From Candidatus Cybelea sp. (GTDB taxonomy: Bacteria; Vulcanimicrobiota; Vulcanimicrobiia; Vulcanimicrobiales; Vulcanimicrobiaceae), in contig JBAQAW010000058.1 in the NCBI GenBank assembly GCA_049285915.1, positions 1,739-65,738 on the forward strand: a stretch of DNA of 64,000 bases, in the 5' to 3' direction. Both the position numbers and the translations under genes were made by a program. The notes beneath the pieces are model-generated. The model was not told the DNA's origin and did not search any database. It worked only from the letters and a program-made list of their open reading frames with translations. Shown piece after piece: positions 22,726 through 42,662 of the stretch (position 1 is its first letter; every line of letters starts with the position of its first letter).

Positions 22726-23323
22726 CGCATTTTTGGTCGCCTTTGCGGCACTCGGCGTCTCTTCGCAGTCGGTGCACGAGCCCGCGCGAAGATTCGCGCT
22801 GTTGGCGAGGTGGGAGACACCTATCCCCAGTTACGCGAGAGCCACGTCCGTGGACGCAGCATTCACCACGCTTACCTATTGGGTTCCGGCGCTGAGCGGT
22901 CTCGTGATGCTTTGGATAGCATTTTTGAGTCCACGCCGGAGCGATCGCACGCTGTGGAGCGCCGCGATGATATTCACGGCGTACGAGTTAGCTGCCGACG
23001 GGGCCCATTTCTTTGCGCGGAGGTCCCCGGATGGAATGATCCACACGTACCCGAACGTGGCCGCGGTCGTCGGTTTAATCGCTTACGGCGGTTGGCTTCT
23101 CATCCTACGGGAGAGTACGCTGCCAGTTTGGCTGAAGCGCCTGCTGAGCGGCCTCTGCCTCTTGGCGGTTCTCGTGATTCTTGCTTATCCGGCGATCAAC
23201 GCGTACACGCGGACGGTCGACCTCGCCGGTTCCGTCTTATTTGCCGGCTCCCTGTTCGCTCTTGGAATCTTCGTTGCACGGCGCGTCGGCGTCGATCTGT
23301 TGGCCCGCAATGCCTCAGGATAG
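22649..23323 (+). CDS. Integral membrane protein (several predicted TM helices)
   Basis: Hydrophobic segments WVSIAFLVAFAALGV, LSGLVMLWIAFL, VVGLIAYGGWLLIL, LCLLAVLVILAY, VLFAGSLFALGIFV. Start uncertain. Confidence 0.45.
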   Translation: MEDEGLIPNRREIPWRIVPPAIWVSIAFLVAFAALGVSSQSVHEPARRFALLARWETPIPSYARATSVDAAFTTLTYWVPALSGLVMLWIAFLSPRRSDRTLWSAAMIFTAYELAADGAHFFARRSPDGMIHTYPNVAAVVGLIAYGGWLLILRESTLPVWLKRLLSGLCLLAVLVILAYPAINAYTRTVDLAGSVLFAGSLFALGIFVARRVGVDLLARNASG

Positions 23324-24056: not shown

Positions 24057-24070
24057 CGAGACGCGGGCGA

Positions 24071-25588: not shown

Positions 25589-25680
25589 GAGGTCCCTCCG
25601 TCAAAGAAAAGCGCGATCCCGGCGTAATTGCTTGGCTGACGCTGCGATGCGTTCCCGCTAAGATAGTGTGACGCAAGTCA

Positions 25681-25760
25681 TCCTTCGGCAATCCTTCGAC
25701 AATCCTTCGACAAGCTCAGGATGACACCGACAGGCTCAGGATGACACGACTGGGGTGACG
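25681..25760 (+). repeat. Dispersed repeat, most elaborate copy
   Basis: 3 x 11-bp TCCTTCG(G/A)CAA, then 2 x CGACA(A/G)GCTCAGGATGACAC. Lies in the divergent promoter region between two PE genes. Confidence 0.8.
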
Positions 25761-25800
25761 GCCGTAGGAAGAAAGAAATGCGTTTCGAACTCGGATCTGG

Positions 25801-27219: not shown

Positions 27220-27261
27220 GCAAACGTGGCCCCGCAAAAACGCCGAACGCGAAGCTCAGGA

Positions 27262-28719
27262 CTACTCCGGGTCGCCGGGGCCTGAAGGCGGCTCGTGCAG
27301 GAAGTAGTCCTTGGTTTTGCTCGAGGGGATGCTGGTAAACGTTCGTGGCTGCTGGTCGTAGTTGAAGACGTTGCCGATGCTGTTTGCGCGCCGATCGGTC
27401 GTACCCAGCGAGCCGAGCTTCCAGTTCTGCTCGACGTACTTCAGGATGCTGCCGAACTCGTACTGCGTGTGCGAAACGACGCCTTGCCCGACGTACGGCG
27501 AGACGATCATCATCGGCACCCGGAAACCTAAGCCTCCCTGGTCGTCGCGTTTGCCCGGCGGCTTCACGTGATCGTACAGGCCGCCCCAATCGTCCCAGAG
27601 GACGACGATCGCGCTGCTGTTCCAGTAGCTGCTCTGCCCGATCGCGTTGACGACGCTTGCAACCCATTCGGGGCCGTTGTCGACGCTATCGCCGAGATGA
27701 TCGGAGTCGTTCTCCGAGGGAATAAGCCAGGAAACGGCGGGCAGCGCGTTATTCTGGATGTCGGTGAGGATGTTCGTCTGGGGCATCGATACGTTCGTGC
27801 CCCATTCGGGTCCGTAGCGGACCGGCGCGATGACGTCGAAGGCGTTGAGGAGCCCGCCGATGCACGTCGTGCAGGTCTCGCCTTGGCAGCCCGAGGTGCC
27901 GCTATCTTTGAAGCAGGGCGAGTAGTACTTCCAACTCACGCCGGCGGCATCGAGCAGATCGCGCATCGTCTGGTAGTTGGAGTAGCCGGAGTACCCGAAG
28001 TCCTTGGTGCAGGGCTGCGGGCCGTTATTCTCGCCCCAGGTCAGCGAAGTACTGATGAGATCGGTGACGACGTTGCTGAGCGCGTCGCAACCCCACGGAT
28101 CGCCGTCGGGCGTATCGATCATGCTCGATGAGGAACCGTACTGTCCCCCAAGGGCAGTGCCCCCGCGAATCAAATCTTGGTGTGCCGTGAAACTGCCGCT
28201 GCCCTGTGTCTGGAACGTGCGATCGGCAAGCACGTACTGGGAGGCGATGTCCCAGTAGGGCGCGATCTCCGAAGGATTGACGTAGGCGTACGCGAGCGCA
28301 TTGATCTGCTTGACGTTCTTGGGCCAGTTCCGCGGGCAGACGCCGTAGGGCTCGCGGTTGAAGCCGTCCATCTTGCCCTTATCGTAAGCGCGCATGAACG
28401 AGTAGAAGCAGTGCCCGATGTCGGTGTTGCTCTGCTTGCGCACCAGATCTTGCTCGGCCAGATTGACGCGTTTGTCGATCCAGCGGCCATTCTCGAGCAC
28501 ACGCTCTTTGCCGTATGTGACGCACGCGGTGCCCTTAAAGCAGTCGAACAGGTTATCGAAGCTACGGTTCTCTTGGATCACGATCACGACGTGCTGGATC
28601 GGTGAGTGCGAGGAGCCGGTCTGCGGAAGCAGCGCGGTCGGGGCGAGAGATATCCCGTTTGCCCCTCCGCAACCGGCCAGCGCGAGGCCAACGATCAATG
28701 CGAAGACTAGCTTTCTCAT
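27262..28719 (-). CDS. PE-A: PLC/AcpA-family phosphoesterase lipoprotein
   Basis: Trimmed to MRKLVFALIVGLALAGC. VIVIQENRSFDNLF, GSGSFTAHQDLIRGGT, DSDHLGD, VLWDDWGGLYDHV. Confidence 0.9.
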   Translation of the reverse strand: MRKLVFALIVGLALAGCGGANGISLAPTALLPQTGSSHSPIQHVVIVIQENRSFDNLFDCFKGTACVTYGKERVLENGRWIDKRVNLAEQDLVRKQSNTDIGHCFYSFMRAYDKGKMDGFNREPYGVCPRNWPKNVKQINALAYAYVNPSEIAPYWDIASQYVLADRTFQTQGSGSFTAHQDLIRGGTALGGQYGSSSSMIDTPDGDPWGCDALSNVVTDLISTSLTWGENNGPQPCTKDFGYSGYSNYQTMRDLLDAAGVSWKYYSPCFKDSGTSGCQGETCTTCIGGLLNAFDVIAPVRYGPEWGTNVSMPQTNILTDIQNNALPAVSWLIPSENDSDHLGDSVDNGPEWVASVVNAIGQSSYWNSSAIVVLWDDWGGLYDHVKPPGKRDDQGGLGFRVPMMIVSPYVGQGVVSHTQYEFGSILKYVEQNWKLGSLGTTDRRANSIGNVFNYDQQPRTFTSIPSSKTKDYFLHEPPSGPGDPE

Positions 28720-28896
28720 CCTGCGAGGGTCGTTCGTTCCGGTAAGCCGGCTTCCATGGCTCCGCTGGAAGGAGAGCGACCGGTTGCCACGCGATGACCC
28801 GAGAGGGGCCGCGGTGAAGTAGCCCGACGCTGACTGGAATCGTCGAACGCATTGGCCGGGCGGCGCGTTCTCGTTAGAGAGGAGCACTACATTGCT

Positions 28897-30264
28897 ATGC
28901 GATTGACCAGTTTCCGGATTTCATTGGTCCCGGCGGTGCTGGCGTTGGCACTTTCGGGCTGCGCGTTCGGCGCGCCGTCTTCTTCCTTACCTTACATGCA
29001 GAGCAACGCCAGCCTTATGCGTCTTAACTCGACGGGCGCGGGCAAGATCACCCACATCGTCTATATCGTTCAAGAGAACCGCAGCTTCGACAACATGTTC
29101 TACGGCTATCCGGGCGCGGACACCGCGAAGTACGGCTACACCTCGGGCAATAAGAAGGTGAAGCTGAAGCCAGTCGGCCTCGAGGCGTTCTACGTGATCG
29201 ATCACTCGGCCGACGCGATGTTCGCCGCATGCAACGCGCCATCGGGCGAGCTGCCGGGCACGCACTGCCGCATGAACGGCTTCAACAAGGAGGAACACGA
29301 AGACGGGCCGCGCGGCGTGGAGTATCCGGAGTACGTGTACGTCCCGCACAACGAGTCTGCTCCGTATTTCGACATGGCGCGCCAAGGGGTGCTGGCCGAC
29401 CGTATGTTCCAGTCGCAGCTCGACGAGAGCTTCGTCGCGCACCAATATATCATCGCGGCGCAGGCCAAGTGGTCCGTCGATCTGCCGTACGGACTATGGG
29501 GTTGCGAGCAGCCGGGGGTGAAGATTCAGACGATCACCAAGCAGCGGACCTACGGGCCCTCCGAGCCCGTCTGCTTCGACTATCAAACCCTGGGTGACGA
29601 GCTCGATAAAGCGCACCTGTCGTGGCGCTTCTACGCTAGCCAGTACGGCAGCGCGTCGAGCGGCGACGGCGGCACGTGGTCGAGCTATGAGGCCGTGCGC
29701 CATATTTACGACGGGCCGGACTGGAAGAGAGACGTCATCTCGCCGAATTGGAAGTTCATCACCGACGTCAAGGCGGGAAAGCTGGCGAACTTTACCTGGA
29801 TTACGCCGGTCTGCGACGACTCCGACCACGTCAACTGCTACGGTGGGTACGGTCCGTCGTGGGTCGCGGCGTTGGTCAATACGGTCGGTAAGAGCAAGTT
29901 CTGGAACTCGACGGCGATATTCATTCAGTGGGACGACTGGGGCGGGCTCTACGATCACGTCGCGCCCGCCTATCTCGATCGCGATAGCCTCGGCTTCCGG
30001 GTTCCGCTGATCGTGATGTCGCCGTACGCGATCGCGGGCACCGTTTCGCACACGCACTACGAAACGGCGAGCGTGCTGCGATTTGCCGAGGATCTGTGGG
30101 GGCTCAAGCAGCTCGCCCCGGCGGACCGGCGCGCGAACTCGCCGGCGGATGCCTTCAACTTCAACCAAGCACCGCGCAAGTTCATCCATATCAAGGCTCC
30201 GCTGCCGCCGAAGTTCTTCATGCACCAGTTCCCCAACGACTACTTCGCCCCCGACTACGAATAG
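28897..30264 (+). CDS. PE-B: PLC/AcpA-family phosphoesterase lipoprotein
   Basis: Trimmed to MRLTSFRISLVPAVLALALSGC after GAGAGGAG. GAGKITHIVYIVQENRSFDNMF, DESFVAHQYIIAAQA, DSDHVNCYGGYGPSWV, IQWDDWGGLYDHVAP. Confidence 0.9.
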   Translation: MRLTSFRISLVPAVLALALSGCAFGAPSSSLPYMQSNASLMRLNSTGAGKITHIVYIVQENRSFDNMFYGYPGADTAKYGYTSGNKKVKLKPVGLEAFYVIDHSADAMFAACNAPSGELPGTHCRMNGFNKEEHEDGPRGVEYPEYVYVPHNESAPYFDMARQGVLADRMFQSQLDESFVAHQYIIAAQAKWSVDLPYGLWGCEQPGVKIQTITKQRTYGPSEPVCFDYQTLGDELDKAHLSWRFYASQYGSASSGDGGTWSSYEAVRHIYDGPDWKRDVISPNWKFITDVKAGKLANFTWITPVCDDSDHVNCYGGYGPSWVAALVNTVGKSKFWNSTAIFIQWDDWGGLYDHVAPAYLDRDSLGFRVPLIVMSPYAIAGTVSHTHYETASVLRFAEDLWGLKQLAPADRRANSPADAFNFNQAPRKFIHIKAPLPPKFFMHQFPNDYFAPDYE

Positions 30265-30277
30265 GGTGTAGGCAGAG

Positions 30278-31144
30278 ATGCTGCCGCTCAGCGACGCGAT
30301 GCCCGTCTTCTGGCGGCTGTGGGCCTCCACCGAGGGGCAGCCGGCAAAGCGGGTGCGCGCCTTCAAGGAAGAGATCGTGATGCCGAATCTCGCCGTTTAC
30401 GCCGACGGCGAGTTCGGCCACGACCTGCTCGACGACGCCACGATCGGCGCGTATCTCGAGCGACTCGAGCCGATCGTTCCCCAGATGCGAACCGTCAGCC
30501 GGCGGCTGGCGCAGCAGCTGCCACCGATCATCGACGCTTTTCAGAAATCGCTGCCGGACTTCAAGACGGACAACATCGTCATCTATATGCTTCCGTCGTT
30601 CTTTCATTTCAACGCGCAGACGCACGACATCGGCAAGAAGATCGGGCTGCTCCTGGGGATCGACGGCATCGTACGTTTCGACGGAGTCGATGCGAACGTC
30701 GGCGTCGACGTCTCGCACGAGCTCTTTCATCTCTATCAGTTTCAGATGCAGCCGAACCTTAACCGAAACACCACGAAGCTGTGGCAGGCCGTCTGGGTGG
30801 AAGGTTCGGCGACTTATGCGAGTCAGGTCCTCACCCCAGGCGCGACGGAGGCTGAGGCGCTGATGAGTCCGGCGCTCTCGAATACGGATCCCACCACGGT
30901 CAGCGCATTGGCCTGCGCGATTTCGGCGAAGTGGGATTCGCAAGAAGGCGGCGACATGGAGTTGTTTTTGGATGGAGGTAAGCATCCGGCGAATCTCCCC
31001 CCTCGCGGAGGCTACCTCATCGGATATTTGGTCGCGAGCGATCTCGGCAAGACGTATTCGCTCGCGCAGACCGGGAAGCTCACCGGTGTGGAACTGGAGG
31101 GCTTGATCCGCCCGCGAGTGCAGGCGCTGTGCAAGACGAGTTAG
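30278..31144 (+). CDS. Putative Zn-metalloprotease-like protein (HExxH; DUF2268-like)
   Basis: VSHELFHLYQ followed by WVEGSATY. No signal peptide seen. Family call from memory of the motif pattern only. Confidence 0.5.
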   Translation: MLPLSDAMPVFWRLWASTEGQPAKRVRAFKEEIVMPNLAVYADGEFGHDLLDDATIGAYLERLEPIVPQMRTVSRRLAQQLPPIIDAFQKSLPDFKTDNIVIYMLPSFFHFNAQTHDIGKKIGLLLGIDGIVRFDGVDANVGVDVSHELFHLYQFQMQPNLNRNTTKLWQAVWVEGSATYASQVLTPGATEAEALMSPALSNTDPTTVSALACAISAKWDSQEGGDMELFLDGGKHPANLPPRGGYLIGYLVASDLGKTYSLAQTGKLTGVELEGLIRPRVQALCKTS

Positions 31145-31199
31145 GGCGCAAAGGGCCAGCGATGCGGAGATTCTTGCGCGATTTGTCTTCGACGGTCGG

Positions 31200-31526
31200 T
31201 TGAAGACGATTCCGGCGGCCAAGAAGAAGCGCATGATCGTTTTGAAGTGGCTGGCCACATTGTTCGAGCGGGGACGGACCTACCACGAGAAAGAAGTCAG
31301 CGACATGTTGCGCGGCGCGAAAGAATTCGTGATCCGGCTCCCTCGGCGAGCCAGGCGAGCACGCCGGCGCGCGAGCAAGTTGACGTGGCTCCGACGTGCC
31401 GCGTTCGCTGCTCTAGATAGCAACCTAGCTCATCTTTCGTCCTACGACTTCGCTCGCTGCGCTCGTTTCGCTTACAGTGACACGTATGGAGCGGTGCAAG
31501 CGGCTGGGTCTGCCCGCCGTAAATAA
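31200..31526 (+). CDS. DUF2087-like fragment (possibly a truncated or decayed gene)
   Basis: In-frame FVFDGRLKTIPAAKKKRMIVLKWLATLFERGRTYHEKEVSDML resembles DUF2087. It is followed by an Arg-rich non-family tail. Only a TTG start is available. Confidence 0.3.
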   Translation: MKTIPAAKKKRMIVLKWLATLFERGRTYHEKEVSDMLRGAKEFVIRLPRRARRARRRASKLTWLRRAAFAALDSNLAHLSSYDFARCARFAYSDTYGAVQAAGSARRK

Positions 31527-31614
31527 GGTGACTTAATTTAACCTGGGAAGGTTACGTGTGCGCCGCCTCCTAAAGGGGGTGGCTACAGCTACACCTACTT
31601 TATTGAGGTCGATA

Positions 31615-32796
31615 ATGTCGTTTAGAAATAGTCGCGCGTTAGTGGCCTTAGCCATCGCGTCCATGGTGATGACCGCCTGCGGCGGCGCCGGAATGACCAG
31701 CATTCCCGCAAGCCAACCGTTAATGGGTAATGCCCAGCACTTCCTTGATTCCGGCGGCGTCATGCCCGCCGACTCGACATCCATCCTAAAGAAACTGAAG
31801 AAGGACGTAACCATCGGCTCGACCGTGGATCCGAAAAACGGAGACAAGGGCCCGCGAGCGATCAGCGTCGTCATGGGTAACAACGGGAAGCTGAAGAGGA
31901 ATCAGATTCTCGTTTGCAACTTCGAGGACTCGAAAGGCAACGCCGGTCAGGGTACGACCATCGAGCAGTTCTCGCCGACCCCGAATTCTAAGCCGACGAC
32001 GTTCGTGCAGAGCTCCAAGCTCGCAGGATGCAACGGCACGGCGATTACTTCCGGCGAGCAAGTCTATGCCACCGGCATGACCAGCAAGGTCATGGTCTGG
32101 ATCAACCAATCCGGCCAGATCAAGAAGACGTACGGCAAGCCGATTACGATGCCGCTCGCGGATGTGGAAACGCCGCAGCTCTACCTCTACTCGCCCATCT
32201 ATATCTTCGTCGGCAACGGCGATACCGGGACCGTCGATACCCTTAGCCTTGGCGGCTATGGCACGGGCAACGTGAAGGAAGTGATCGACGGCTTCCCGGT
32301 CAACAAAGGCTCGGGCTGGGACGCACAGGGGCCGTCGGGCTTCGCGTACTGGTGCGGCTCGCTTCCCGGAGCGCTGCAGTGCAAGAACAAGGCGGATGTG
32401 ATGTACTTGGCCGACGGCGATTGCAATGCGATCGTGTCGATCGACCACGCCAGCAGTCTGCTCGTGAAAGACGAGATCACGGTCGGTGCCGGCTGCAAGA
32501 CGTTCAAGTGCAAGTATCCCAGCACGACCTGCGGCAAACTGGTGAAGGCCGGCTCGCCGCTGAACAAGCCGTTCGCGGCAACGATCCTACCCAACGGCAA
32601 CATGGTGGTTGCCAACACCGCAAACAACACGCTGGTCGAGCTGATGCCCAGCGGTAAGGTGTTGGCCACGAAGGTCGTCGACAAGAGTAAGACGCCAGGT
32701 ATATGGGGCCTCTTCGCGATCGGCAAGAGCGATAGCAGCACGGCCATCTACTACACCGATACGAATAGCGACGAACTCCACGAACTGGAGCAGTAG
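31615..32796 (+). CDS. BP3: beta-propeller-like lipoprotein, tandem copy 1
   Basis: Trimmed to MSFRNSRALVALAIASMVMTAC. Shares long identical strings with 32818..34005. Confidence 0.75.
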   Translation: MSFRNSRALVALAIASMVMTACGGAGMTSIPASQPLMGNAQHFLDSGGVMPADSTSILKKLKKDVTIGSTVDPKNGDKGPRAISVVMGNNGKLKRNQILVCNFEDSKGNAGQGTTIEQFSPTPNSKPTTFVQSSKLAGCNGTAITSGEQVYATGMTSKVMVWINQSGQIKKTYGKPITMPLADVETPQLYLYSPIYIFVGNGDTGTVDTLSLGGYGTGNVKEVIDGFPVNKGSGWDAQGPSGFAYWCGSLPGALQCKNKADVMYLADGDCNAIVSIDHASSLLVKDEITVGAGCKTFKCKYPSTTCGKLVKAGSPLNKPFAATILPNGNMVVANTANNTLVELMPSGKVLATKVVDKSKTPGIWGLFAIGKSDSSTAIYYTDTNSDELHELEQ

Positions 32797-32817
32797 CACT
32801 CGAAGAAAGGGCGTGTC

Positions 32818-34005
32818 ATGGAGCTTCGTAACGCCGGCCGGTTCGCTTTAGCCGCCTCTCTCGTTACGTTCTCCGCGTGCGGCGGAGGCGGCGTCGCGCC
32901 GAACGGGCCGGCGCTCTCCGCCCTCCCGACTTCTCAAGGGGCCTCAGCATCTGCCGATGCGAGGCCTTTTGATTCGACGTCGATCCTCAAGAAGCTGACG
33001 AAGGACGTAACGATCGGTTCGACGGTGGATTCGAAAAACGGAGACAAGGGCCCGCGCGCGATCAGCGTCGTCATGGGGAACAACGGGAGGCTGAAGAAGA
33101 ATCAGATTCTCGTCTGCAACTTCGACGACTCCAAAGGCAACGCCGGCGGCGGGACGACGATCGAACAGTTCTCGCCGACCCCAAACTCCAAGCCGACGAG
33201 GTTCTTTCAAAGCTCGAAAATCGAGGGCTGCGACGGTGACGCGATCACTGCAGGCGAATCGGTCTATGCGGCAGGGATGACCAGTGGGCTGGTGGTGTGG
33301 ATCAACCAGAACGGGAAGCTGAAGAAGACCTTCGGTAAGCCGATCACGATGCCGATCGCGGATTCGGAAGCCCCGCAACTCTACGACTATTCGTCGGAAT
33401 ACATCTTCGTCGGCAACGGCGACACGGGAGCGGTCGATAGCTTCAGCCTCGGCGGGTACGGGACGGGCCATCCGACGGAGATCATCAACGGGTTTCCGGT
33501 GAACAAGGGCTCCGGCTGGAAGGCGCAAGGTCCGTCGGGGTTTGCCTATTGGTGCGGATCGCTTCCCGGCGAGTTGCGATGCGCTACACATAAAGGTACG
33601 GCCGATACGTTGTACGTCGCCGACGGCGATTGTAACGCAATCGTGGCGATCGACCACGCCAGCAGCCTGCTCGTCAAAGACGAGATCACGGTTGGTGCCG
33701 GCTGCAAGCGCTTCACCTGCCTCTATTCAAGCACGACCTGCGGCAGGCTCGTGAAGGCGGGCTCTCCATTGAACAAACCCTTCGCTGCGGCTATCCTGCC
33801 CAACGGCAACATGGTAGTTGCCAACAGCGGGAACAACACGCTGGTCGAATTGATGCCGAGCGGCAAGGTATTGGCCACGAAGGTCGTGGACAAGAGCAAG
33901 ACGCCGGGGATATGGGGCCTCTTCGCGATCGGCAAGAGCGATAGCAATACGGCCATCTACTATACGGACACGAACAGCAACGAGCTCCACGAACTGGAGC
34001 AGTAA
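32818..34005 (+). CDS. BP3: beta-propeller-like lipoprotein, tandem copy 2
   Basis: Lipobox TFSAC. Identical strings with copy 1 include KNGDKGPRAISVVMGNNG, GTTIEQFSPTPNSKPT, AQGPSGFAYWCGSLPG, IDHASSLLVKDEITVGAGCK and NNTLVELMPSGKVLATKVVDKSKTPGIWGLFAIGKSDS. Confidence 0.75.
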   Translation: MELRNAGRFALAASLVTFSACGGGGVAPNGPALSALPTSQGASASADARPFDSTSILKKLTKDVTIGSTVDSKNGDKGPRAISVVMGNNGRLKKNQILVCNFDDSKGNAGGGTTIEQFSPTPNSKPTRFFQSSKIEGCDGDAITAGESVYAAGMTSGLVVWINQNGKLKKTFGKPITMPIADSEAPQLYDYSSEYIFVGNGDTGAVDSFSLGGYGTGHPTEIINGFPVNKGSGWKAQGPSGFAYWCGSLPGELRCATHKGTADTLYVADGDCNAIVAIDHASSLLVKDEITVGAGCKRFTCLYSSTTCGRLVKAGSPLNKPFAAAILPNGNMVVANSGNNTLVELMPSGKVLATKVVDKSKTPGIWGLFAIGKSDSNTAIYYTDTNSNELHELEQ

Positions 34006-34030
34006 CATAATCTAAGAAGGGGGTGGAGCG

Positions 34031-35320
34031 ATGGAGCGCTCCCTTTTCGGTTTAACGGCGATGGTGCTGGCCGCGGTACTTTGCGGTTGCGGCGGGATGC
34101 AAGGATCGGGCGGCGCGCCGGGCAGCGCCCTCCCTGGGGGCAGTGGCTTCGGCGTTTCGCGAGCGACGAGCTCGGGAAGTCCGATTCAGCACGTCGTGAT
34201 CATGGTGCAAGAGGCGCGCAGCTTTAACGCGATCTTTGGAACGACTAAGATTGCGAAGGCGCGAGCCGGCAAAGGCAAGCATTCACACACGATCACCATT
34301 AGGCTGCGGAAAGTCGGCTTCAACGCGAAGGGACCGTCGAAAACATTGCACGATGCGTACCTTCGCGATCTGGGCAACGGCAAGATGGACGGATTCTATG
34401 AGGAGAACGGCCGCGTCGCCTACGAGTACCTCGACCCCGCCGTGATTCGACCCTATTCGGCGATTTCGTCCGACTACGCCGTGGCCGACCGCATGTTCGA
34501 GACGCAGGGGAGCGGCGACTTCACCGCCCATCAAGATCTTATTCGCGGCGGAACCGAGATTAGCTCGAAGGCAAGCGTCATCGACATTCCGAGCGGTGTG
34601 CCCTGGGGCTGCGACGCCCCGCCCGGTATAACGACGAATCTCATTACAACCAGTGGGCGATACGAGGCGCGCGGCGGTCCGTTCCCATGCTTTACTTACG
34701 ATACCTTGCAGACGCGGTTCGATCGAAAATCAATTGCATGGAAATATTACGTACCATCGTGGCGTTCCGATGTATCCTTATCTTGGAACGCCTTCGCTGC
34801 GATCAAGGCCGTGGCCGATAATAAGCGCGAGTGGAACGCGCACATCTCGTCACCGGAGACCAACGTACTGAGCGATATCGCCAATGGCGAGCTGCCGGCC
34901 GTATCGTGGGTGATCCCCTCCGCGCCAAACTCCGATCTTCCGAACTATCCGCACGCCTCCGGTGGCCCGAGTTGGATCGCCGCGGTCGTCAACGCCGTCG
35001 GGCAGAGCAAGTATTGGGACTCGACGGCGATCGTTATCGTTTGGGACGACTGGGGCGGCTTCTACGACCCCGTTCCGCCGCCGAATCGCGACGACCAAGG
35101 CGGCCCCGGGTTCCGGGTGCCGATGCTCGTGGTCTCGCCCTATACGCCGCAAGGCTACGTCTCGCACACGGTCTATGGCTTCGGCAGCATCATTCGCTTC
35201 GTCGAGGAGACGTTCGGCCTCAAACCGCTGGGGACGACCGACGAGACGTCGAACAGCATGAAGGACATGTTCGACTTCAATCAGTCGCCGCGGCCGTTCG
35301 AGCAGATTCCATCGAAGTAG
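34031..35320 (+). CDS. PE-A-derived paralog with substituted catalytic motifs (candidate pseudo-enzyme)
   Basis: Lipobox VLCGC. Full-length PE fold motifs are retained (WGCDAPPG, WKYY, GPSWI, VIVWDDWGGFYDPV, GFRVPMLVVSPY). However QENRSF is QEARSF, GSGSFTAHQ is GSGDFTAHQ, and SDHPG is SDLPN. Confidence 0.8.
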   Translation: MERSLFGLTAMVLAAVLCGCGGMQGSGGAPGSALPGGSGFGVSRATSSGSPIQHVVIMVQEARSFNAIFGTTKIAKARAGKGKHSHTITIRLRKVGFNAKGPSKTLHDAYLRDLGNGKMDGFYEENGRVAYEYLDPAVIRPYSAISSDYAVADRMFETQGSGDFTAHQDLIRGGTEISSKASVIDIPSGVPWGCDAPPGITTNLITTSGRYEARGGPFPCFTYDTLQTRFDRKSIAWKYYVPSWRSDVSLSWNAFAAIKAVADNKREWNAHISSPETNVLSDIANGELPAVSWVIPSAPNSDLPNYPHASGGPSWIAAVVNAVGQSKYWDSTAIVIVWDDWGGFYDPVPPPNRDDQGGPGFRVPMLVVSPYTPQGYVSHTVYGFGSIIRFVEETFGLKPLGTTDETSNSMKDMFDFNQSPRPFEQIPSK

Positions 35321-35330
35321 GGGAGCCAAC

Positions 35331-36320
35331 GTGACCGGATTTCGAATCTTCGCGGCCGGAATTTCACTGGCCGTGGCGACCGGCTGCGGCGGGTCCGCGG
35401 GAGGCGTCGTACCCGACGGTCCTTTCGGCGCAGTAACGCGAGCCGTGCATCGCGATCGCGGCGCGTCGTGGATGGATCACGACGCCGTCAGCCGAGCTAG
35501 GCTTCTCTACGTCACGGATGTGCTCGACGGCGACGTCTACGTGCTCTCGCTTCCAACTGGAAAGCTGGTTGGGAAGCTCACAGGCTTCAACCGCCCCACT
35601 GGCGACTGCGTCGACGGGCAGGGGAACGTGTTCGTCGCAGACTCGCAAGACGGGAGTATTCGTGAGTTTCACCACGGAGCGAAAGAGCCGTCCAACGTGC
35701 TGAACGACAGCGGCTATACTCCATTGGGGTGCTCGGTCGATCCCGTCTCCGGAAACCTCGCCGTTACGAATTCGACCGGCAACCGGAATCGGTCAGGGGC
35801 GGGGAACGTGGCGATCTACAAAAAAGCAAAAGGCGCACCGAGGTACTATTCCGACAAGAGTATCAAGGAATACGGTTTCTGCGCGTACGACACGCTGGGA
35901 AACCTCTACTTCAATGCGGCCACTCCGGTATTGCTCGCAGAGTTGCCGAGGGCAGCGAAGACGTTCGTTAGGCTCAATCTCGATCATGGTAACGGCGAAG
36001 CCGAAGGCGCGATGCAATGGGATGGTAAGCACCTCGCGATTGGCATTGGCACCAGGACGATCTACGAATACGCAATCCAGGGAGACAAAGGGATCGAGAC
36101 CGGTTCGACCCAGCTTGGAAATTCGACAAGCGTCCTCGGTTTTTGGATTTCCGGAGCGAGGGTCTACGCGCCGGTTTATGAGAACAGCCTCGGGAGCGTC
36201 GGCGTCTATCGGTATCCCGCCGGAGGAAAGGCCAAGCAGCAATACTACGCGGTCATCAATCCGTGGAGCGCGACGCTGAGCGTTAAACAGGAGAGCCAGC
36301 GCAGCGGCGCTCACTTATAA
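35331..36320 (+). CDS. BP1: beta-propeller lipoprotein, 10 nt downstream of the degenerate PE gene
   Basis: GTG 5 nt after GGGAG. Lipobox AVATGC. LLYVTDVLDGDVYVLSLPTG, DCVDGQGNVFVAD, GCSVDPVSGNLAVTN, FCAYDTLGNLYFN, MQWDGK, VYRYPAGG. Confidence 0.8.
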   Translation: MTGFRIFAAGISLAVATGCGGSAGGVVPDGPFGAVTRAVHRDRGASWMDHDAVSRARLLYVTDVLDGDVYVLSLPTGKLVGKLTGFNRPTGDCVDGQGNVFVADSQDGSIREFHHGAKEPSNVLNDSGYTPLGCSVDPVSGNLAVTNSTGNRNRSGAGNVAIYKKAKGAPRYYSDKSIKEYGFCAYDTLGNLYFNAATPVLLAELPRAAKTFVRLNLDHGNGEAEGAMQWDGKHLAIGIGTRTIYEYAIQGDKGIETGSTQLGNSTSVLGFWISGARVYAPVYENSLGSVGVYRYPAGGKAKQQYYAVINPWSATLSVKQESQRSGAHL

Positions 36321-36335
36321 CGATACGACGCGTCG

Positions 36336-36767
36336 TTATTTTCCGGTGATGTGAATTTTCAAGATCGCGATCGGCGGGCTTCCCGTGTTGTTGAGGATCG
36401 CGGTGAAGCTGCAATCGTCTGGGCCGGCGCTCTGCGCTTGGAACCAGTACTCGACGTGGACATACTTCTTTGGGTTGCCCCACTGCCGGTGCGGTGTCGT
36501 AGCTATCTCGCCGGCGTTTTTGCAGTAGACCGGCAGCGTGTAGTAGCCGTCTGGCCCGAAGTACGATAGTTCGGCGCGCGCGTGTTTTGTCGAAGGATAG
36601 CGGAGACGCACGGCGTTCTTATTCCACGTAATGTTCCCACTGTAGTTTAGCTTCGCGCGTTGGACGGTCCCAACGTCCGACTGCGCGGCGGGCGGGTTGG
36701 CGGGCTGCGATGCGCTGCAGGCCGTCGACGCGGCGGCTAGTAGGGCGGGAAGAAGTCTTCTCATCAT
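36336..36767 (-). CDS. Hypothetical lipoprotein
   Basis: Trimmed to MMRRLLPALLAAASTAC. No family recognised. Confidence 0.5.
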   Translation of the reverse strand: MMRRLLPALLAAASTACSASQPANPPAAQSDVGTVQRAKLNYSGNITWNKNAVRLRYPSTKHARAELSYFGPDGYYTLPVYCKNAGEIATTPHRQWGNPKKYVHVEYWFQAQSAGPDDCSFTAILNNTGSPPIAILKIHITGK

Positions 36768-36794
36768 CTTGCGTGCGTGCTTTTTGCCGGCGGT

Positions 36795-36830
36795 CCTTCG
36801 ACTCCGCTTCGTTCCGCTCAAGATGACAGG
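36795..36830 (+). repeat. Dispersed repeat, long form (CCTTCGAC-N14-CTCAAGATGACAGG)
   Basis: Parallels the 14039..14073 copy. Confidence 0.6.
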
Positions 36831-36852
36831 CGGGGCGCCGCGCGGCGCCGCG

Positions 36853-37449
36853 CTAGTACACGTGGTAGATTTGGCCGGTTTGGTGGCCTTCGATGCTTTT
36901 CGAGAACGCGAGTCCGACGCGTTTGACCGGGACCGGTTCGTAGCCGCGGAAGTACGGACCGTAGCCTTCCATCGATTCCTCCAGGACCGTCGGGCTCACG
37001 GCGTTGATGCGGTGATCCGGCAGTTCGATGGCCGCGGCGCGGACGAAGCTTTCGAGCGCACCGTTTGCCATTGAAGCCGACGATCCGAAGCGGATCGGAT
37101 CCTCTGCGAGGATCCCGCTGATCAGCGTGAATGAGCCGCCGCGTTTGAGGGCTTCGCGGCCCGCGAGGACGAGGTTCACCTGGCCCATGAGTTTATCGCG
37201 CAAGCCGACGTCGAAATCTTCGGCCGTCATGCTTTCGAGCGGACCAAATTTCACGTTGCCGGCCGCGCAGGCGACTGCGTCGAGGTCGCCCGCCTGGGCG
37301 TAAAGCTCGGCAACGCTCTTGGGATCGGCGATGTTGACGCGAAAGTTCCCAGCGGAGCGGCCGGCGGTTACGATTTCGTGGCGCCCCTGCAGTTCGGCGA
37401 CGACGGCCTTGCCGATCGTTCCGTTTCCTCCTACGACGAGTATCCTCAT
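36853..37449 (-). CDS. Short-chain dehydrogenase/reductase (about 200 aa class)
   Basis: MRILVVGGNGTIGKAV Rossmann motif. SDR-like length and layout. Confidence 0.8.
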   Translation of the reverse strand: MRILVVGGNGTIGKAVVAELQGRHEIVTAGRSAGNFRVNIADPKSVAELYAQAGDLDAVACAAGNVKFGPLESMTAEDFDVGLRDKLMGQVNLVLAGREALKRGGSFTLISGILAEDPIRFGSSASMANGALESFVRAAAIELPDHRINAVSPTVLEESMEGYGPYFRGYEPVPVKRVGLAFSKSIEGHQTGQIYHVY

Positions 37450-37554
37450 ATCAGCCGATTTGACCCGCGTCTGACGGCTGTGGTTGCGCTAGGGAGAGCG
37501 CGAGCAAAGCCGAAGCCTCCCCCTTCGAGGCGGACGCACGGGGGGGCGTCAAGT

Positions 37555-38652
37555 ATGAGATCCGTTCTGCTCATAGCCACAATCATTCTTAGCGGTTGCG
37601 CGATGCCGAGCGCTTTCGGCAGCCGCGCGGTCCCGCTTGCGCGGGCGGCCGTTCGACCGGCGACACCGAGCGCCTACCTTTACGTCGCCGACGACGGCGG
37701 CACACTGAACTACGGCGGCGTCACCGTCTACGATCCCGGCCTGCGGCGCGCCGTGAGGAGTATCGCTCGAGGGGCGTTCAATCCGATGTCGATTGCCGTC
37801 GGCGGGGACGGAACGCTCTACGTGCTCAACGAGTCTTCCGGTTATGCCGGCGGCATCCGCGTAACCGAGTACGACGCCGGCAGTCATAAGCCGTCGCGCA
37901 GGATCGATAACCTTTACTGGGGCGTCATGCTGACGACGGACGTTTCGAATAACCTTTATTTGGCCAACTGCAACTCGTGCGTCATCTACGGCGCGCCCTT
38001 GCGGAACAACGTGTCCGATACGGTGACGGTTTACGGGCCGAAGCAGACGAAACCGCTGCGCACGATCGAGCAGGGAATCCATACGCCGCAGTCGCTCGCG
38101 GTCGACTCGCGAGGATACATCTACGTTGCCAACGGCGGAACTCCGAAGGCCCGGCCGTCCATCACCGTCTACGCGCCCGGATCGACGGCGCTCTTGCGCG
38201 AGGTGAAGCTAAGCATTCATCGTGATTTGAAGTACATGACGCTCGACTCACAGGGGAATCTTTACGTAACCAATCGCGATGAGGTCATCGAGTTCGGGCC
38301 GGGCCTGCACCCCGTGCTGCGCCGCATCCGCGACGAAGTTGAAGGTCCGCGTGCGCTGGCGGTTGATCCGTCGGATAACCTCTACGTCGCCAACGACGCC
38401 GGCTTCCCCGCGACCTATGGGATCTCGGTTTACCCGCCCGGCGCCACGCATGCGAAGTACCGTATCAAACCCGACGTCAACGATCCGGTAGCACTTGCGA
38501 TCGATGGCGACGGCAGGCTGTACGTCGCCAACGACGGCGGTACGGGCAACGGCGACCTCGAGGTATTCAAACCCGGCGCGCGCCGGCCGGCGCGGCTACT
38601 TGCCGGCAATCAGTACGGCGATCCGATCGCGTTCGCGTTCGGAGTGCAGTAG
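37555..38652 (+). CDS. BP2: NHL-repeat beta-propeller lipoprotein
   Basis: Trimmed to MRSVLLIATIILSGC. Blades PMSIAVGGDGTLYVLNE, PQSLAVDSRGYIYVANGG, PRALAVDPSDNLYVANDAG, PVALAIDGDGRLYVANDGG. Confidence 0.8.
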   Translation: MRSVLLIATIILSGCAMPSAFGSRAVPLARAAVRPATPSAYLYVADDGGTLNYGGVTVYDPGLRRAVRSIARGAFNPMSIAVGGDGTLYVLNESSGYAGGIRVTEYDAGSHKPSRRIDNLYWGVMLTTDVSNNLYLANCNSCVIYGAPLRNNVSDTVTVYGPKQTKPLRTIEQGIHTPQSLAVDSRGYIYVANGGTPKARPSITVYAPGSTALLREVKLSIHRDLKYMTLDSQGNLYVTNRDEVIEFGPGLHPVLRRIRDEVEGPRALAVDPSDNLYVANDAGFPATYGISVYPPGATHAKYRIKPDVNDPVALAIDGDGRLYVANDGGTGNGDLEVFKPGARRPARLLAGNQYGDPIAFAFGVQ

Positions 38653-38661
38653 GGGTGCGAG

Positions 38662-39768
38662 ATGAAACGCTCGATCTTTTGCTTTGCGAGCGCGGTGCTG
38701 CTCGCGAGCTGCTCCGCACCGCCTGGGCTTACTCTGGGCCCGGCAAAACCTAGCGAACGTGCCGGGCAGCCCTTGACGTCGAGCGGTCCGCAACGGCTTT
38801 ACGTGGCGGAGTGCTGCGGCGTGCTCAACACGGGCGACGTCGTGCGCTACGGGCCCAGCGAAGAGGGCATTGCGCATCGCTACGTCAACGGCGCGCACTT
38901 CCCGTTGCAGATCGCGACCGACGATTCGGGAACGCTCTACGTCCTCAATGAGTCGAATCTCGGCCCGCAAGGGATCGCGATTACCGAGTACGATCGCGGC
39001 AGCCCGCAACGCTCGCGGCGCATCGGCTATTTTTACTGGGCAACGACCTTCGCCCTCGACCGCAAGGCGAAGGTTTACGTCGCAAACTGCAATACGTGTA
39101 CGTACTCGAGCGCGCGCCCGCAGGCGAAGCCGTCGGACTCGGTCACGATCTATCAGACGAAGGGAACGCAGCTCGTCGAGACGATCACGGACGGCATCTA
39201 CGAGCCGCAGGCGCTGGCTTTCGATCGAAGCCAGAATCTCTACGTCTCCAACGCCGGCGCGCGCCATCATTCGCCTTCGGTCACGATTTACGCGCCGGGT
39301 TCGACGTCGCCGATGCTGACGATCACGAAGGAGATTACGAGCCCGGGAGCGCTCGGCTTCGATCGCGCCGGTAATTTCTACGTAGCCGACGGGCAGCAGC
39401 GGGTCCTGGAGTACGCGCCCGCGTCAGATCGGATTTTGCGGACGATCCGAGACGGCATTCGGGCCCCGAAGGCGTTACAGTTCGGGCGTTACGGGCGCCT
39501 CTACGTCGCGAACTGGCCGCCCAGCGGAACCGGCTGGATATCGGTGTATTCTCCCGGCAGCACGACGCCGAGGTACGAGATCGAGAACAACGTCCAATAC
39601 CCCGTTTCGATGGTGCTCGACAGCAAAGAGAACCTGTACGTCGCCAATCTCGGCAACTACGGCGACAGCTGGGTCAGCGTCTACGAGCCGAGCGACGGGG
39701 CATTGATTAAGACGATTCGGGGCGGCAAGCATGGGCCGCCGCGTTCGCTCGCGTTCGGGGTGCGCTAA
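38662..39768 (+). CDS. BP2: NHL-repeat beta-propeller lipoprotein
   Basis: Lipobox LLASC. Blades PLQIATDDSGTLYVLNE, PQALAFDRSQNLYVSNAG, PGALGFDRAGNFYVADG, PKALQFGRYGRLYVANW, PVSMVLDSKENLYVANLG. Confidence 0.8.
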   Translation: MKRSIFCFASAVLLASCSAPPGLTLGPAKPSERAGQPLTSSGPQRLYVAECCGVLNTGDVVRYGPSEEGIAHRYVNGAHFPLQIATDDSGTLYVLNESNLGPQGIAITEYDRGSPQRSRRIGYFYWATTFALDRKAKVYVANCNTCTYSSARPQAKPSDSVTIYQTKGTQLVETITDGIYEPQALAFDRSQNLYVSNAGARHHSPSVTIYAPGSTSPMLTITKEITSPGALGFDRAGNFYVADGQQRVLEYAPASDRILRTIRDGIRAPKALQFGRYGRLYVANWPPSGTGWISVYSPGSTTPRYEIENNVQYPVSMVLDSKENLYVANLGNYGDSWVSVYEPSDGALIKTIRGGKHGPPRSLAFGVR

Positions 39769-39859
39769 CCCTTCGACAGCCCTTCGACAGCCCTTCGACA
39801 AGCTCAGGGTGACACGGGGGACACGGGGGACGCGGGGGACGCGAGGGATGCGAGGGTCA
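39769..39859 (+). repeat. Dispersed repeat with modular tandem parts
   Basis: 3 x 11-bp CCCTTCGACA(G/A), core GCTCAGGGTGACA, then 5 x 9-bp CG(G/A)GGGA(C/T)(A/G)-like units (39815..39859). Read directly. The 9-mers and the core overlap the 3' end and stop codon of the minus-strand LAL gene. Confidence 0.8.
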
Positions 39860-42662
39860 CGAGTTCGGTGCGTGAGCGGACGCCGAGTTTACGATAGGCC
39901 GACGCGAGGTGGGTCTCCACCGTTCGTTCGCCGATCGCCGTCTCCGAGGCGATCGCTCTGTTCGTATAGCCGCGGGCGGCAAGCTCGACGATCTGGCGCT
40001 CGCGCGGCGTGAGATCGAGCGCGTTCGAGCGTTCGGGCTTGTGGACGCTGCCGGTACGAATGCGGCGCAGCGCTCGCGTCGCGCCGACGCTCTCGTAGAT
40101 CGTTGCGGCGCGTTCGAGGTCTCCGCCGGCTTCAGCGGCGAGCGCTTCTTCAACGCGCCAGCCCAACGCGTGAAAGGCATCGGCGGCGTCGAGGCAGGCT
40201 CGCGTATCGCCGGCGCGGCGCGCGTCGAAGAGCCGCAGAAACGCCGCAGCGAGCGGATTCTTCGAATCTTGTGCGATCTGCGCGACCAGCGCGCGGGCTC
40301 CGGCGGCGCGATCATCGTCAAGCAACTCGGCGGCCACGTCGCAGAGCCAGTAGGTTTGGTCGGGGACCTTGACGACTTCGAGCGCCTTCTCGACGATTGC
40401 GCGGGCACGCTCGCGTTCCCCGCACTCGAGCAGGGTGCGCGCCGCCGCTCCGGTGACGGCGGCGACGAGCTGCGATTCGCGCAGCTGAAGCACCGACGCA
40501 ACGGCGCTCTCGATATCGATGGCATCGAGCTCGCCGGCGTCGAGCAGGCCGCGCAGCCGCAGTCCCAGCACCCAGGAGAATCCGGCCGACATCGGCGACA
40601 TCGAGTGGGTCGACGTGCAGTCGCGGAAGCTTTGCAGCGCAGATTGGAGTCTGCCGGCGTACATCGCGGCGAGGCCGGAGTCGCAGCGCAGCATCGCAGC
40701 GTTGCGCTGCAGCCCGTAGCGTTCGGCCAGGCCCAGGGCGTAGGCGTACATCGACTGCGCCTCGGCCAGCGAGCCGCCCAGCACCAAGACGTTCGAGACA
40801 TTACCGAGCGCGTGCACCTGGTAGAGCGTGTTGTCGATGCGTTCGGCGACCGCCAGCGCCGCGCGGTGCTCGTCGCGCGCGGTGGAGTACATGCCGAGCG
40901 ACGCGAAGGCGTTCCCGCGGGCGGTGTGGGCGCGTCCGCGATCGGCGTCGTCTTTTGGCCCGGTGTCGCGCTCGGCTTCGTCCAGCACGGCCAGGGACTC
41001 GCGAGCGCGGCCGAGCGTCGAGAGCATCCCAGCCAGCGTGGTCGCAGCGTGATAGTGAATCGCCGCAGTGCGCTGACCTTTGAGTTCGGCGCGCACCAAC
41101 TCGGTCGTCTCGAGCGCGCGATCGACGTCGCCGGATTCGTAAAGCTGGCGCGCCAGGCGCAGCATCAGCGTGAAGGCGGCATGCTCGTCGCCGGAGCGGC
41201 GAAGCTCCTGTGCGCCGAGCTGGCACCACGTCCGCGCGCGCTGAAACTCGCCGACAACGTTGAGCGCGAAGGAGACCTTGCCGACGAGCCGCGCCCGATC
41301 GTAATCGTGCGCGAAATCCAGCGCACGCTCGTACGAGCGCGACGCATCGCCGTACGCGTACATCGCGGCGAAGCGGTCGCCGGCGGCTTCGTTGGCGAGG
41401 ATCGCGCGCGACACATCGCCGGCCGCCCAGAGGTGGTACGCGATCTCGTCTTCGTTGGCGGCGGGATCGTTTTCCAGCAGCGCCGCGATGCGGCCGTGAA
41501 GGCGCCGCGCCTGCGAGTGCAGCAGCTCGCGATAGATCGTCTCACGCGTGATCGCGTGGCGGAAACGGAAGGGCGGATGCGCGGTGCGCTCGACGACGAG
41601 CTGCACGTTGCGCGCGCGATGCAGCGCGGCAAGAATATCGTCTTCCTTTGCATCCATGAGCGCGGCGAGGAGCTCGGCATCGAAGTCGCGGCCGATCACC
41701 GCGGCAGCGAGCATCGCCTCCTGTTCGTTGGGCGCCATCGCTCGCAAACGTTGGATGATGCTGGCCGCGATAGAGCCGGGAATGCCGCCGGCTTCGGCGC
41801 GGTCCCCGTCGAGCGCGCTGCGCAGCAACTCTTCGGCGACCAGCGGGTTGCCTTCGGAGAGAGCGACGATCCGATCGCGCTGATGCGAATCGAGCGGCCG
41901 CGACGTGTCCGCGCCCGAAAGCAGCGAGCCGATATTGGTGTCGGAGAGCGGCTCCAAGCGAAGGTTGGCCACGCCTTCGCGCACCGCGCGCGAGAGCTGC
42001 GCGGCGCGCGAGGCGTCGCGTGAGATCTCTTCGCTGCGATAGGTTCCGAGAATCAGTACCGGAGCGTCGCTGAGGCGGCGCGCGAGGTGACGCCAGAGGT
42101 CGAGCGTCGCCGCGTCGCTCCACTGCAGGTCCTCGACGACGACGAGCACGGCGCCGTCTTCGGCACAGCGGCGGCGGAGGTGCTCTTCGACGAGGCGGAA
42201 ACGGCGCAGCCGTTCGGTCTCGGGGGCAACGACGCGCTCTGCGAGGCCGCGCAGCTCGCGTTCGAGCGGGGAGGCGCGATCGCCGGAGATCAGCGCTTCG
42301 ATCAGCGGCTCGTACGGCGTCGAAACGTACTCGACGCAGGTACCGTGCAAGACGAGGCAGCGCTCGCGGCGGACCCGATTCTCAAACTCCCGCAGCAGGC
42401 GCGACTTGCCGACGCCGGCGTCGCCGCCGATCATCAGCGCGCCGCCCGTCCCCTCGGCCTTGGTCTTGCGAAAGGCCGCGAGCAGCCGCGCGAGCTCGGG
42501 CTCGCGTCCAACGAAATGCTCGAAGCCGGTGTCGGTCACGGTGGAACGATGCTTCCGGGCCGCCTCCGTACCGCTCCTGCGTGGGTACGTACCCGCCGCG
42601 GCCCGAGAATGCGTACCGGGGCATCGGGCTCTCCGTAGCTTCACGGATAGGCGGCCGGGCAC
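39804..42662 (-). CDS. LAL-family regulator (AAA+/TPR/LuxR HTH), copy 2
   Basis: P-loop GGDAGVGKSRLLREF, VVVEDLQWSD, C-terminal LTPRERQIVELAARGYTNRAIASETAIGERTVETHLASAYRKLGV. By comparison with copy 1 the true start is probably the GTG at 42539 (VTDTGFEHFVGREPEL). Confidence 0.85.
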   Translation of the reverse strand: MPGRLSVKLRRARCPGTHSRAAAGTYPRRSGTEAARKHRSTVTDTGFEHFVGREPELARLLAAFRKTKAEGTGGALMIGGDAGVGKSRLLREFENRVRRERCLVLHGTCVEYVSTPYEPLIEALISGDRASPLERELRGLAERVVAPETERLRRFRLVEEHLRRRCAEDGAVLVVVEDLQWSDAATLDLWRHLARRLSDAPVLILGTYRSEEISRDASRAAQLSRAVREGVANLRLEPLSDTNIGSLLSGADTSRPLDSHQRDRIVALSEGNPLVAEELLRSALDGDRAEAGGIPGSIAASIIQRLRAMAPNEQEAMLAAAVIGRDFDAELLAALMDAKEDDILAALHRARNVQLVVERTAHPPFRFRHAITRETIYRELLHSQARRLHGRIAALLENDPAANEDEIAYHLWAAGDVSRAILANEAAGDRFAAMYAYGDASRSYERALDFAHDYDRARLVGKVSFALNVVGEFQRARTWCQLGAQELRRSGDEHAAFTLMLRLARQLYESGDVDRALETTELVRAELKGQRTAAIHYHAATTLAGMLSTLGRARESLAVLDEAERDTGPKDDADRGRAHTARGNAFASLGMYSTARDEHRAALAVAERIDNTLYQVHALGNVSNVLVLGGSLAEAQSMYAYALGLAERYGLQRNAAMLRCDSGLAAMYAGRLQSALQSFRDCTSTHSMSPMSAGFSWVLGLRLRGLLDAGELDAIDIESAVASVLQLRESQLVAAVTGAAARTLLECGERERARAIVEKALEVVKVPDQTYWLCDVAAELLDDDRAAGARALVAQIAQDSKNPLAAAFLRLFDARRAGDTRACLDAADAFHALGWRVEEALAAEAGGDLERAATIYESVGATRALRRIRTGSVHKPERSNALDLTPRERQIVELAARGYTNRAIASETAIGERTVETHLASAYRKLGVRSRTELVTLASLASPASPVSPVSP

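Follow-up and report, generated by a model that had tools for sequence, protein, structure and literature searches.

The 64,000-nucleotide stretch of Candidatus Cybelea DNA analysed here (the window, numbered from its first letter) has a G+C content of 62%, and its closest database relatives belong to Candidatus Cybelea and the Eremiobacteraeota (phylum Vulcanimicrobiota in the NCBI taxonomy). Our subject is the gene at 34031-35320, PE34031, which encodes a phosphoesterase (PE) of family PF04185 with a degenerate active site. It is the third of four tightly packed genes that occupy the plus strand between 31558 and 36320, with gaps of 21, 25 and 10 nt between successive members:

31558-32796, plus strand: UP1, a lipoprotein that leads the same-strand cluster; no Pfam match.
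32818-34005, plus strand: UP2, a 395-residue lipoprotein that ends 25 nt before PE34031.
34031-35320, plus strand: PE34031, 429 residues, a putative lipoprotein of the PF04185 phosphoesterase family whose active site is degenerate, and a member of the Asp-type clade D1 described below.
35331-36320, plus strand: BP1, a 329-residue lipoprotein with a GTG start, 10 nt after PE34031; no Pfam match.

An earlier reading of this DNA, made from the letters alone (the sequence-only reading), had placed the open reading frames (ORFs) of PE34031 and BP1 at these positions and had given BP1 a Shine-Dalgarno (SD) sequence of its own after the 10-nt gap; all of this was borne out, the sequence GGAG preceding the BP1 GTG by 5 nt.

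PE34031 matches PF04185 along the entire model (residues 52-398 against model positions 1-356 of 356; E=3.8e-47, 161.6 bits against a cutoff of 23), and its best match in the PDB, by phmmer and by profile alignments, is Francisella AcpA (2d1g). It scores below the cutoffs of the NCBIfam models TIGR03397 acid_phos_Burk (117.3 against 362.75) and TIGR03396 PC_PLC (104.5 against 580.25), and since the canonical paralog that begins at 14132 likewise stays under both, the whole Eremiobacterota group lies outside those subfamilies. The N-terminus carries a lipobox read by inspection (MERSLFGLTAMVLAAVLCGC followed by GG), and the protein is accordingly a putative lipoprotein. Its residues of interest, with their counterparts in AcpA and in the plant enzyme NPC4, are as follows:

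34088-34090, plus strand: Cys20, the lipobox cysteine (AVLCGC, followed by GG), an invariant column in the ten paralogs of the window and in the clade.
34211-34216, plus strand: Glu61-Ala62, equivalent to AcpA Glu43-Asn44 in the 2d1g alignment; of these two metal ligands the Glu persists and the Asn is gone.
34343-34345, plus strand: Thr105, equivalent to AcpA His106 and NPC4 His79 (the proposed general acid); the His is lost, and the hidden Markov model signature reads EATDHQLDD.
34517-34519, plus strand: Asp163 (codon GAC), equivalent to the AcpA nucleophile Ser175 in the 2d1g profile alignment (GPS175TPG against GSGS/DFTA).
34937-34939, plus strand: Leu303, equivalent to AcpA His350 and NPC4 His264 in the phmmer alignment to 2d1g; the His is lost.
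35045-35050, plus strand: Asp339-Asp340, equivalent to the AcpA metal ligands Asp386-Asp387 (within WDDWGG); retained, and invariant across the ten paralogs.

For the equivalents of AcpA His287 and His288 no alignment was obtained. PE34031 has further lost six residues after motif I, where canonical copies read 'FPGAxG', as well as a C-terminal tail of ~20 residues that the canonical copies share and that ends in P-x-D-x-E/Q; both deletions, together with Thr105, the fourth active-site loss, had been overlooked by the sequence-only reading. A conserved 'TTK' after motif I was considered as a gained catalytic Lys/Thr of the haloacid dehalogenase (HAD) kind, and no claim is made for it, as canonical copies read 'GTTTGK' there and the alignment is ambiguous.

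In the chemistry of the PF04185 family a metal-activated Ser or Thr attacks the phosphate to form a covalent phospho-enzyme, which is hydrolysed in a second step, and the two His residues replaced by Thr and Leu in PE34031 serve to bind phosphate and relay protons. In AcpA the nucleophile is Ser175, the metal ligands are Glu43, Asn44, Asp386 and Asp387, and the substrate phosphate is contacted by His106, His287, His288 and His350, of which H288A and H350A give inactive enzyme, as do S95A, N60A and H204A in SapM (PMC6635428). The corresponding catalytic positions of NPC4 are E23, N24, H79, T158, H264, D299 and E300; activity is abolished or strongly reduced in N24A, H79A, T158A and H264A and likewise in the phosphomimetic variants T158D and T158E, and in the crystal the phosphothreonine coordinates the metal (PMC9837106). 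The substitutions on which the sequence-only reading had built its argument indeed fall within the active site, the alignment placing them at AcpA Asn44, Ser175 and His350 (PMC6635428). Compared with what AcpA/PLC (phospholipase C)-type catalysis calls for, PE34031 lacks the Ser/Thr nucleophile, the Glu-Asn pair and the histidines at the His106 and His350 positions, and retains the Asp-Asp pair.

The window holds exactly ten PF04185 paralogs by tblastn, with PE34031 35-50% identical to the nine canonical ones. In the 10-way alignment A62, D163 and L303 are unique to PE34031, the other nine having N, S and H at these positions, and WDDWGG is invariant in 10/10, retained in PE34031 as had been claimed. 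It had also been claimed that three motifs altered in PE34031 are invariant in the nine other copies, which proved true of the N, S and H residues themselves and not of the surrounding strings, as variants such as QENRTM and QENRSV, or GSASF, ASGSF, GSSSF, QGPSF and LDESF, occur among the nine.

PE34031 had been treated as a one-off paralog; it is instead a member of a conserved clade. Searching 5.8 billion proteins for homologs, and dropping one 277-residue fragment before the clade was counted, we found that homologs carrying GSGDFTAHQ come from Eremiobacterota and are 51-92% identical to PE34031. In neighbour-joining (NJ) trees they form a monophyletic clade, D1, of 26 sequences including the window protein, with zero Ser/Thr sequences within it. 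The nucleophile position is Asp in 25 of the 26 and Gly in the remaining one (P0036, from locus L023), and the Asp codon alternates by lineage between GAC and GAT, with synonymous changes around it. The other altered positions are variable: that of the Asn is A, S, G, D, R, E or Q in D1 (N in 100% of 99 canonical relatives), that of His106 is D, T, G, S or N and never H (H in 94 of the 99), and that of His350 is L, I, H, R, A, S, Y or D (H in 100% of the 99). Glu61 is invariant in D1 and Asp339 nearly so, the clade has 93 invariant columns, and its median length is 423 residues, against 459 in the canonical relatives. As the substitutions recur in orthologs, the pattern seen in PE34031 is not due to chance. 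When 1.84 billion representatives at 50% identity were searched exhaustively with a profile, D1 came back as a single representative (740 bits; the runner-up scored 529). In one-genome-per-species data seven Eremiobacterota genomes carried the Asp type and one more the Gly variant. The canonical signature E-N-H-S-H-D-D was present in 206 of the 275 PE ORFs of the loci we fetched.

We then estimated dN/dS by the Nei-Gojobori method between PE34031 and its orthologs in L005 (93% amino acid identity), L010 (83%), and L006 and L007 (~70%), a test that the sequence-only reading had proposed, and obtained values of 0.12-0.21. Across those genome pairs the values were 0.05-0.11 for canonical PE paralogs, 0.15-0.22 for the UP genes and 0.07 for a short-chain dehydrogenase/reductase (SDR) gene. 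PE34031 is thus under clear purifying selection, with a constraint about two-fold weaker than that on the canonical enzymes.

Several further degenerate lineages were present among the 50%-identity representatives, and tracing one of their members, P0136, led to a second Asp clade, D2, in the same phylum (P0136, P0270-P0289 and P0384; 21 sequences; loci examined, L089 8001-9344 and L090 8001-9362). Its members share the conserved signature E-[G/A/S]-E-D-H-Q-H-S-E, in which no Asn is left, Glu stands at the His106 position, Asp takes the place of Ser in 21/21, Ser-Glu takes that of the Asp-Asp pair, and His350 persists. D2 resembles D1 in combining Asn loss with the Ser-to-Asp change, in its shortened C-terminus and in its setting among PE and NHL-propeller genes (its genes have NHL propellers and peptidases of S8 or trypsin-like type around them), and differs in the retained His350 equivalent, the Glu at His106, the Ser-Glu in place of Asp-Asp, and its separate origin. 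In an NJ tree of 344 sequences D1 and D2 are each monophyletic, and the smallest clade that contains both comprises 281 sequences, 235 of them without Asp; the Ser-to-Asp change arose independently in the two. The coupling of this change with Asn loss is the most interesting result of the analysis: Asp at the nucleophile position was found together with the Asn ligand in 0/46 sequences, the combination of Asn with Ser/Thr accounts for 283 of the 344, and in the sister lineages of D2 (P0290-P0293) the Asn is gone and the Ser still present.

Four changed catalytic positions, purifying selection and a monophyletic clade of 26 together make up the sequence pattern of a pseudoenzyme, and since the substitutions are true active-site substitutions in a gene under purifying selection, a protein that is non-catalytic and yet functional is the best reading. 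We therefore hold, with moderate confidence, that PE34031 is a conserved pseudo-phosphoesterase lipoprotein, whose fold would be preserved, with the metal site probably maintained by the Asp, and which would act in a non-hydrolytic manner. In this scheme an exported lipoprotein of AcpA/PlcH-type fold would have lost the chemistry of its family, and the carboxylate of Asp163 would occupy the coordination place left by Ser and Asn, leaving the metal site and the fold intact in an arrangement comparable to a lasting imitation of the phospho-enzyme intermediate. The larger Asp carboxylate may have taken over metal coordination once the Asn was lost, by analogy with the phosphothreonine of NPC4; the loss of activity is likewise suggested by analogy with the characterised relatives, and the protein would then act through binding instead of hydrolysis.

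Several observations weigh against this reading. The pocket motifs QGSGDFTAHQDLIRGGTE, WDDWGG and GFRVP are extremely conserved in D1, which is equally compatible with chemistry taking place in the pocket, and the replacement residues of D2 are themselves conserved, giving that clade the look of re-tooling rather than of loss. The AlphaFold2 (AF2) model of PE34031, built from the 26-sequence clade alignment, reached a predicted local distance difference test score (pLDDT) of 43.9 and a predicted template modelling score (pTM) of 0.44, and is unusable for the geometry between Asp163 and the metal ligands. Finally, no partner gene is consistent across all of D1, so that the proposed 'binding subunit' is left without a target.

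The question of partners was approached through the loci of the Asp-type PEs, whose arrangements, by identity to PE34031, are:

L005 (~92%): UP-UP-PE-BP1, the same as in the window.
L010 (~82%): UP-UP-PE, then an opposite-strand block of AraC, PD40-Tricorn and DJ-1 genes, then the shared 161-residue and SDR genes.
L006 (70%): UP-PE (the contig begins within UP), then the same opposite-strand block, then the shared SDR gene.
L007 (67%): UP-UP-PE-PE, with a tandem Asp-type duplicate in the place of BP1.
L001 and L012 (57-60%): the PE directly preceded by a BP1-family gene.
L003 (58%): an opposite-strand BP1-family gene.
L004, L008, L014 and L023 (55-59%): a PE adjoined by no BP1- or UP-family gene.

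The two lipoproteins upstream of PE34031 are 76% identical to each other. UP2 shows weak similarity to known families (a Pfam SGL match, and PDB matches to the NHL domains of Pizza6 and TRIM2/3) and is probably an NHL/SGL-like beta-propeller, and translation of UP1 probably starts at residue 20 of its ORF, a Met ahead of the lipobox MTACGG. A scan of 30200-37600 returned 0 promoter-like sites and terminator-like matches at or below shuffle expectation; no terminator-like site is cleanly intergenic in the cluster, the sole plus-strand match (34025-34042) overlapping the PE34031 start codon. PE34031 appears to be co-transcribed with the two NHL-like lipoproteins.

It is conceivable, if somewhat unlikely, that UP1 and UP2 are conserved functional partners that form a complex with the pseudo-phosphoesterase or share a cell-envelope pathway with it. 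A UP gene lies directly upstream on the same strand, with the gaps of 21-25 nt seen in the window, in L005, L010, L007 and L006, that is, in orthologs down to 67% identity, and another lies 1.5 kb upstream in L016; none of the ~186 canonical PEs has a same-strand UP gene directly upstream. Against such a partnership, the tight cases are confined to one subclade and hence non-independent, L001, L003, L004, L008 and L014 have no UP gene, and L025, L058 and L061 have UP genes without an Asp-type PE. The UP pair is nevertheless a better partner candidate than BP1.

The main rival to the pseudoenzyme reading holds that the Asp-type proteins are re-tooled hydrolases, which would use a metal-bound Asp as nucleophile (through an acyl-phosphate, as in HAD phosphatases) or attack by a metal-bound water, possibly on a new substrate. 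In its favour, Ser became Asp twice independently and always with Asn loss, the Asp is fixed though Gly or Ala would have sufficed for inactivation, conservation around the pocket is very strong, and D2 has a conserved alternative constellation, E-x-E-D-H-Q-H-S-E. We nonetheless regard re-tooling as unlikely. The three other catalytic positions are variable in D1, which would not be expected of a new catalytic apparatus under selection, and no natural carboxylate nucleophile is known in the alkaline-phosphatase superfamily, nor did we find one in the searchable literature; moreover, the T158D variant of NPC4 is inactive (PMC9837106). A more ambitious form of the idea, in which the coupled Asn loss and Ser-to-Asp change, having evolved twice, is an adaptive re-tooling that yields either acyl-phosphate catalysis or a high-affinity receptor mimicking the phospho-enzyme, strikes us as improbable. 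Were it true, these proteins would be the first natural alkaline-phosphatase-like members to use a metal-bound carboxylate, and would represent a new envelope activity or binding function in an uncultured phylum.

The sequence-only reading had gone further than the pseudoenzyme reading and cast PE34031 as a non-catalytic subunit that works with the BP1 propeller; its degenerate-but-functional part is supported by our data, and the role of BP1 is unsupported by synteny. BP1 itself is predicted to be a six-bladed beta-propeller: its AF2 model (pLDDT 78.8, pTM 0.79, 24 strands) matches the YWTD, NHL and Pizza6 six-bladed propellers in Foldseek at E~1e-9. As had been stated, PE34031 alone among the PEs of the window is directly followed by a BP1-family gene of its own strand, and a role as regulatory or binding subunit specific to BP1 could draw on the tight 10-nt junction with its separate SD, on the repetition of the arrangement in the 92% ortholog L005, and on the BP1-family genes that L001 and L012 have directly upstream and L003 has on the opposite strand. 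However, no BP1 gene lies downstream in L010, L006, L007, L004, L008, L014 or L023, the more distant clade members standing alone or beside other genes, and in the full set of fetched loci canonical PEs (8/186) and Asp-type PEs (2/13) had a BP1-family gene on their own strand within 300 nt at similar rates. PE and propeller families co-cluster generally in Eremiobacterota, and with eight BP1-family copies besides BP1 (tblastn), hence 9 BP1 and 10 PE copies in 64 kb, the expansion is so massive that chance adjacency must be common. BP1 also evolves faster, with 79% identity to its L005 counterpart (93% for the PE) and a dN/dS of 0.30. BP1 is a lineage-specific neighbour and a recent addition to the cluster, not a conserved partner; a subunit role specific to it is very improbable, and the idea of a dedicated PE-BP1 operon should not be propagated.

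The reading of PE34031 as a pseudogene in decay, or as an allele that recently lost its function and is now under neutral evolution, to which the loss of four catalytic residues and a dN/dS about twice that of the canonical paralogs might lend some colour, has next to no chance of being right and was rejected, as the ORF is intact in every ortholog, dN/dS is 0.12-0.21, the monophyletic clade spans 51-92% identity with its 93 invariant columns, and the Asp has been kept through synonymous codon changes.

Taken as a pseudo-phosphoesterase, PE34031 is a variant within a well-known family and not a new kind of system. With the family prototype, AcpA of Francisella tularensis (2D1G), it shares the full-length domain, the equivalents of Glu43 and Asp386/Asp387, the WDDWGG-type motif and GFRVP; it differs in being a putative lipoprotein and in the replacements Ser175 to Asp, Asn44 to Ala, His106 to Thr and His350 to Leu. 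The phospholipases C of Pseudomonas (PlcH/PlcN-type) and plants (NPC4) belong to the same superfamily and have the same catalytic positions, but PE34031 is without the PLC C-terminal domain, and relative to NPC4 its natural sequence amounts to the inactivating T158D, N24A, H79x and H264x combined. The nine canonical PEs of the window (e.g. 14132-15529) and their relatives have in common with it the putative lipobox, the SFTAHQ-type context and the location in a PE/propeller island, whereas their E-N-H-S-H-D-D signature, 'FPGAxG' and C-terminal tail are all missing in the PE34031 clade. A functional analogy may be drawn with the degenerate LytM factors EnvC and NlpD, exported hydrolase paralogs that have lost catalytic and metal-site residues, are conserved, and bind or activate partners; the analogy does not extend to the fold, which is unrelated, and the metal ligands of PE34031 are partly retained.

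The PF04185 enzymes AcpA, PlcH, SapM and the plant NPCs have been studied as virulence factors and lipid-signalling enzymes, and in the searchable literature we found no account of natural inactive or re-tooled members of the family, and nothing relevant on phospholipase C in Eremiobacterota. Within the large PE expansions of Eremiobacterota, Asp occupies the nucleophile position in no fewer than two clades that evolved independently and are maintained by selection; other degenerate lineages are present as well, and gene counts under the heading "phospholipase C / acid phosphatase" overstate the phosphoesterase capacity of these uncultured soil and peat bacteria. The repeated pairing of Asn loss with Ser-to-Asp amounts to a natural experiment in rewiring this fold at its metal and nucleophile site, and D1 and D2 offer concrete targets for the study of pseudoenzyme function.

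Degeneration is not limited to the two Asp clades. The representatives P0166, P0176, P0181, P0210, P0217 and P0225 have multiple catalytic positions replaced (e.g. QSINSLADD, ADAEMQDDD and QGNLLQRSD); in the PF04185 expansion the catalytic apparatus has been lost repeatedly. In L016, a far more degenerate PE paralog (7318-8583, plus strand), with QEN changed to EMIG, AHQ to ASL, SDH to SDD and WDDWGG to WTDWGG, directly follows the Asp-type PE (5938-7191), so that pseudo-PEs can adjoin in tandem; the same locus has a 466-residue Gly-rich 'TLYGTT..GG' repeat protein between UP and PE. A conserved tandem array comprises 5-7 PEs, and its lead gene in L032 (~3719, plus strand) has Arg at the nucleophile position (QTQGSGRFTAHQ), where the equivalent lead gene of L022, L024, L026, L030 and L033 has Thr.

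The PF04185 lipoprotein expansion of the window, ten genes in 64 kb (including those at 14132-30264, 47484-48854 and 55124-56482), has counterparts in related genomes, where tandem arrays reach up to seven genes, and such expansions (in the window and in L019, L033, L055 and others) are interleaved with six-bladed propeller lipoproteins. Amid the PE and propeller genes of the window, an insertion sequence (IS)-type DDE transposase is encoded at 52722-54077 on the minus strand (DDE_Tnp_1_4, E=9e-133), which is consistent with rearrangements between orthologous loci. Large STAND-type regulators of the AAA_16/TPR_MalT/LuxR (GerE) kind flank the PE/propeller islands (2312-5095 and 39804-42662, both on the minus strand), L007 has a homolog (7556-10255) correspondingly placed behind its NHL gene, and it is possible that these regulators control the PE/propeller cluster.

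Downstream of the PE cluster, a convergent gene begins 15 nt past BP1 and opens a syntenic block:

36336-36821, minus strand: a 161-residue lipoprotein of unassigned family.
36853-37449, minus strand: a 198-residue SDR.
37378-39768, plus strand: two NHL-repeat lipoproteins.

The block is common to L010 and L007, while L006 has the SDR gene alone; in L058 and L061 the 161-residue gene is linked instead to UP and BP1 homologs. Searches of Pfam and NCBIfam gave zero matches for BP1, UP1 and the 161-residue neighbour. The mechanical ORF list also contains long antisense or out-of-frame ORFs over every real gene (e.g. 32944-33657, 34850-35329 and 35793-36314, all on the minus strand), which are artefacts typical of high-G+C DNA. 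Elsewhere in the window, a PhaC-type polyhydroxyalkanoate synthase is encoded at 10092-11846 on the plus strand (PhaC_N, E=1e-57).

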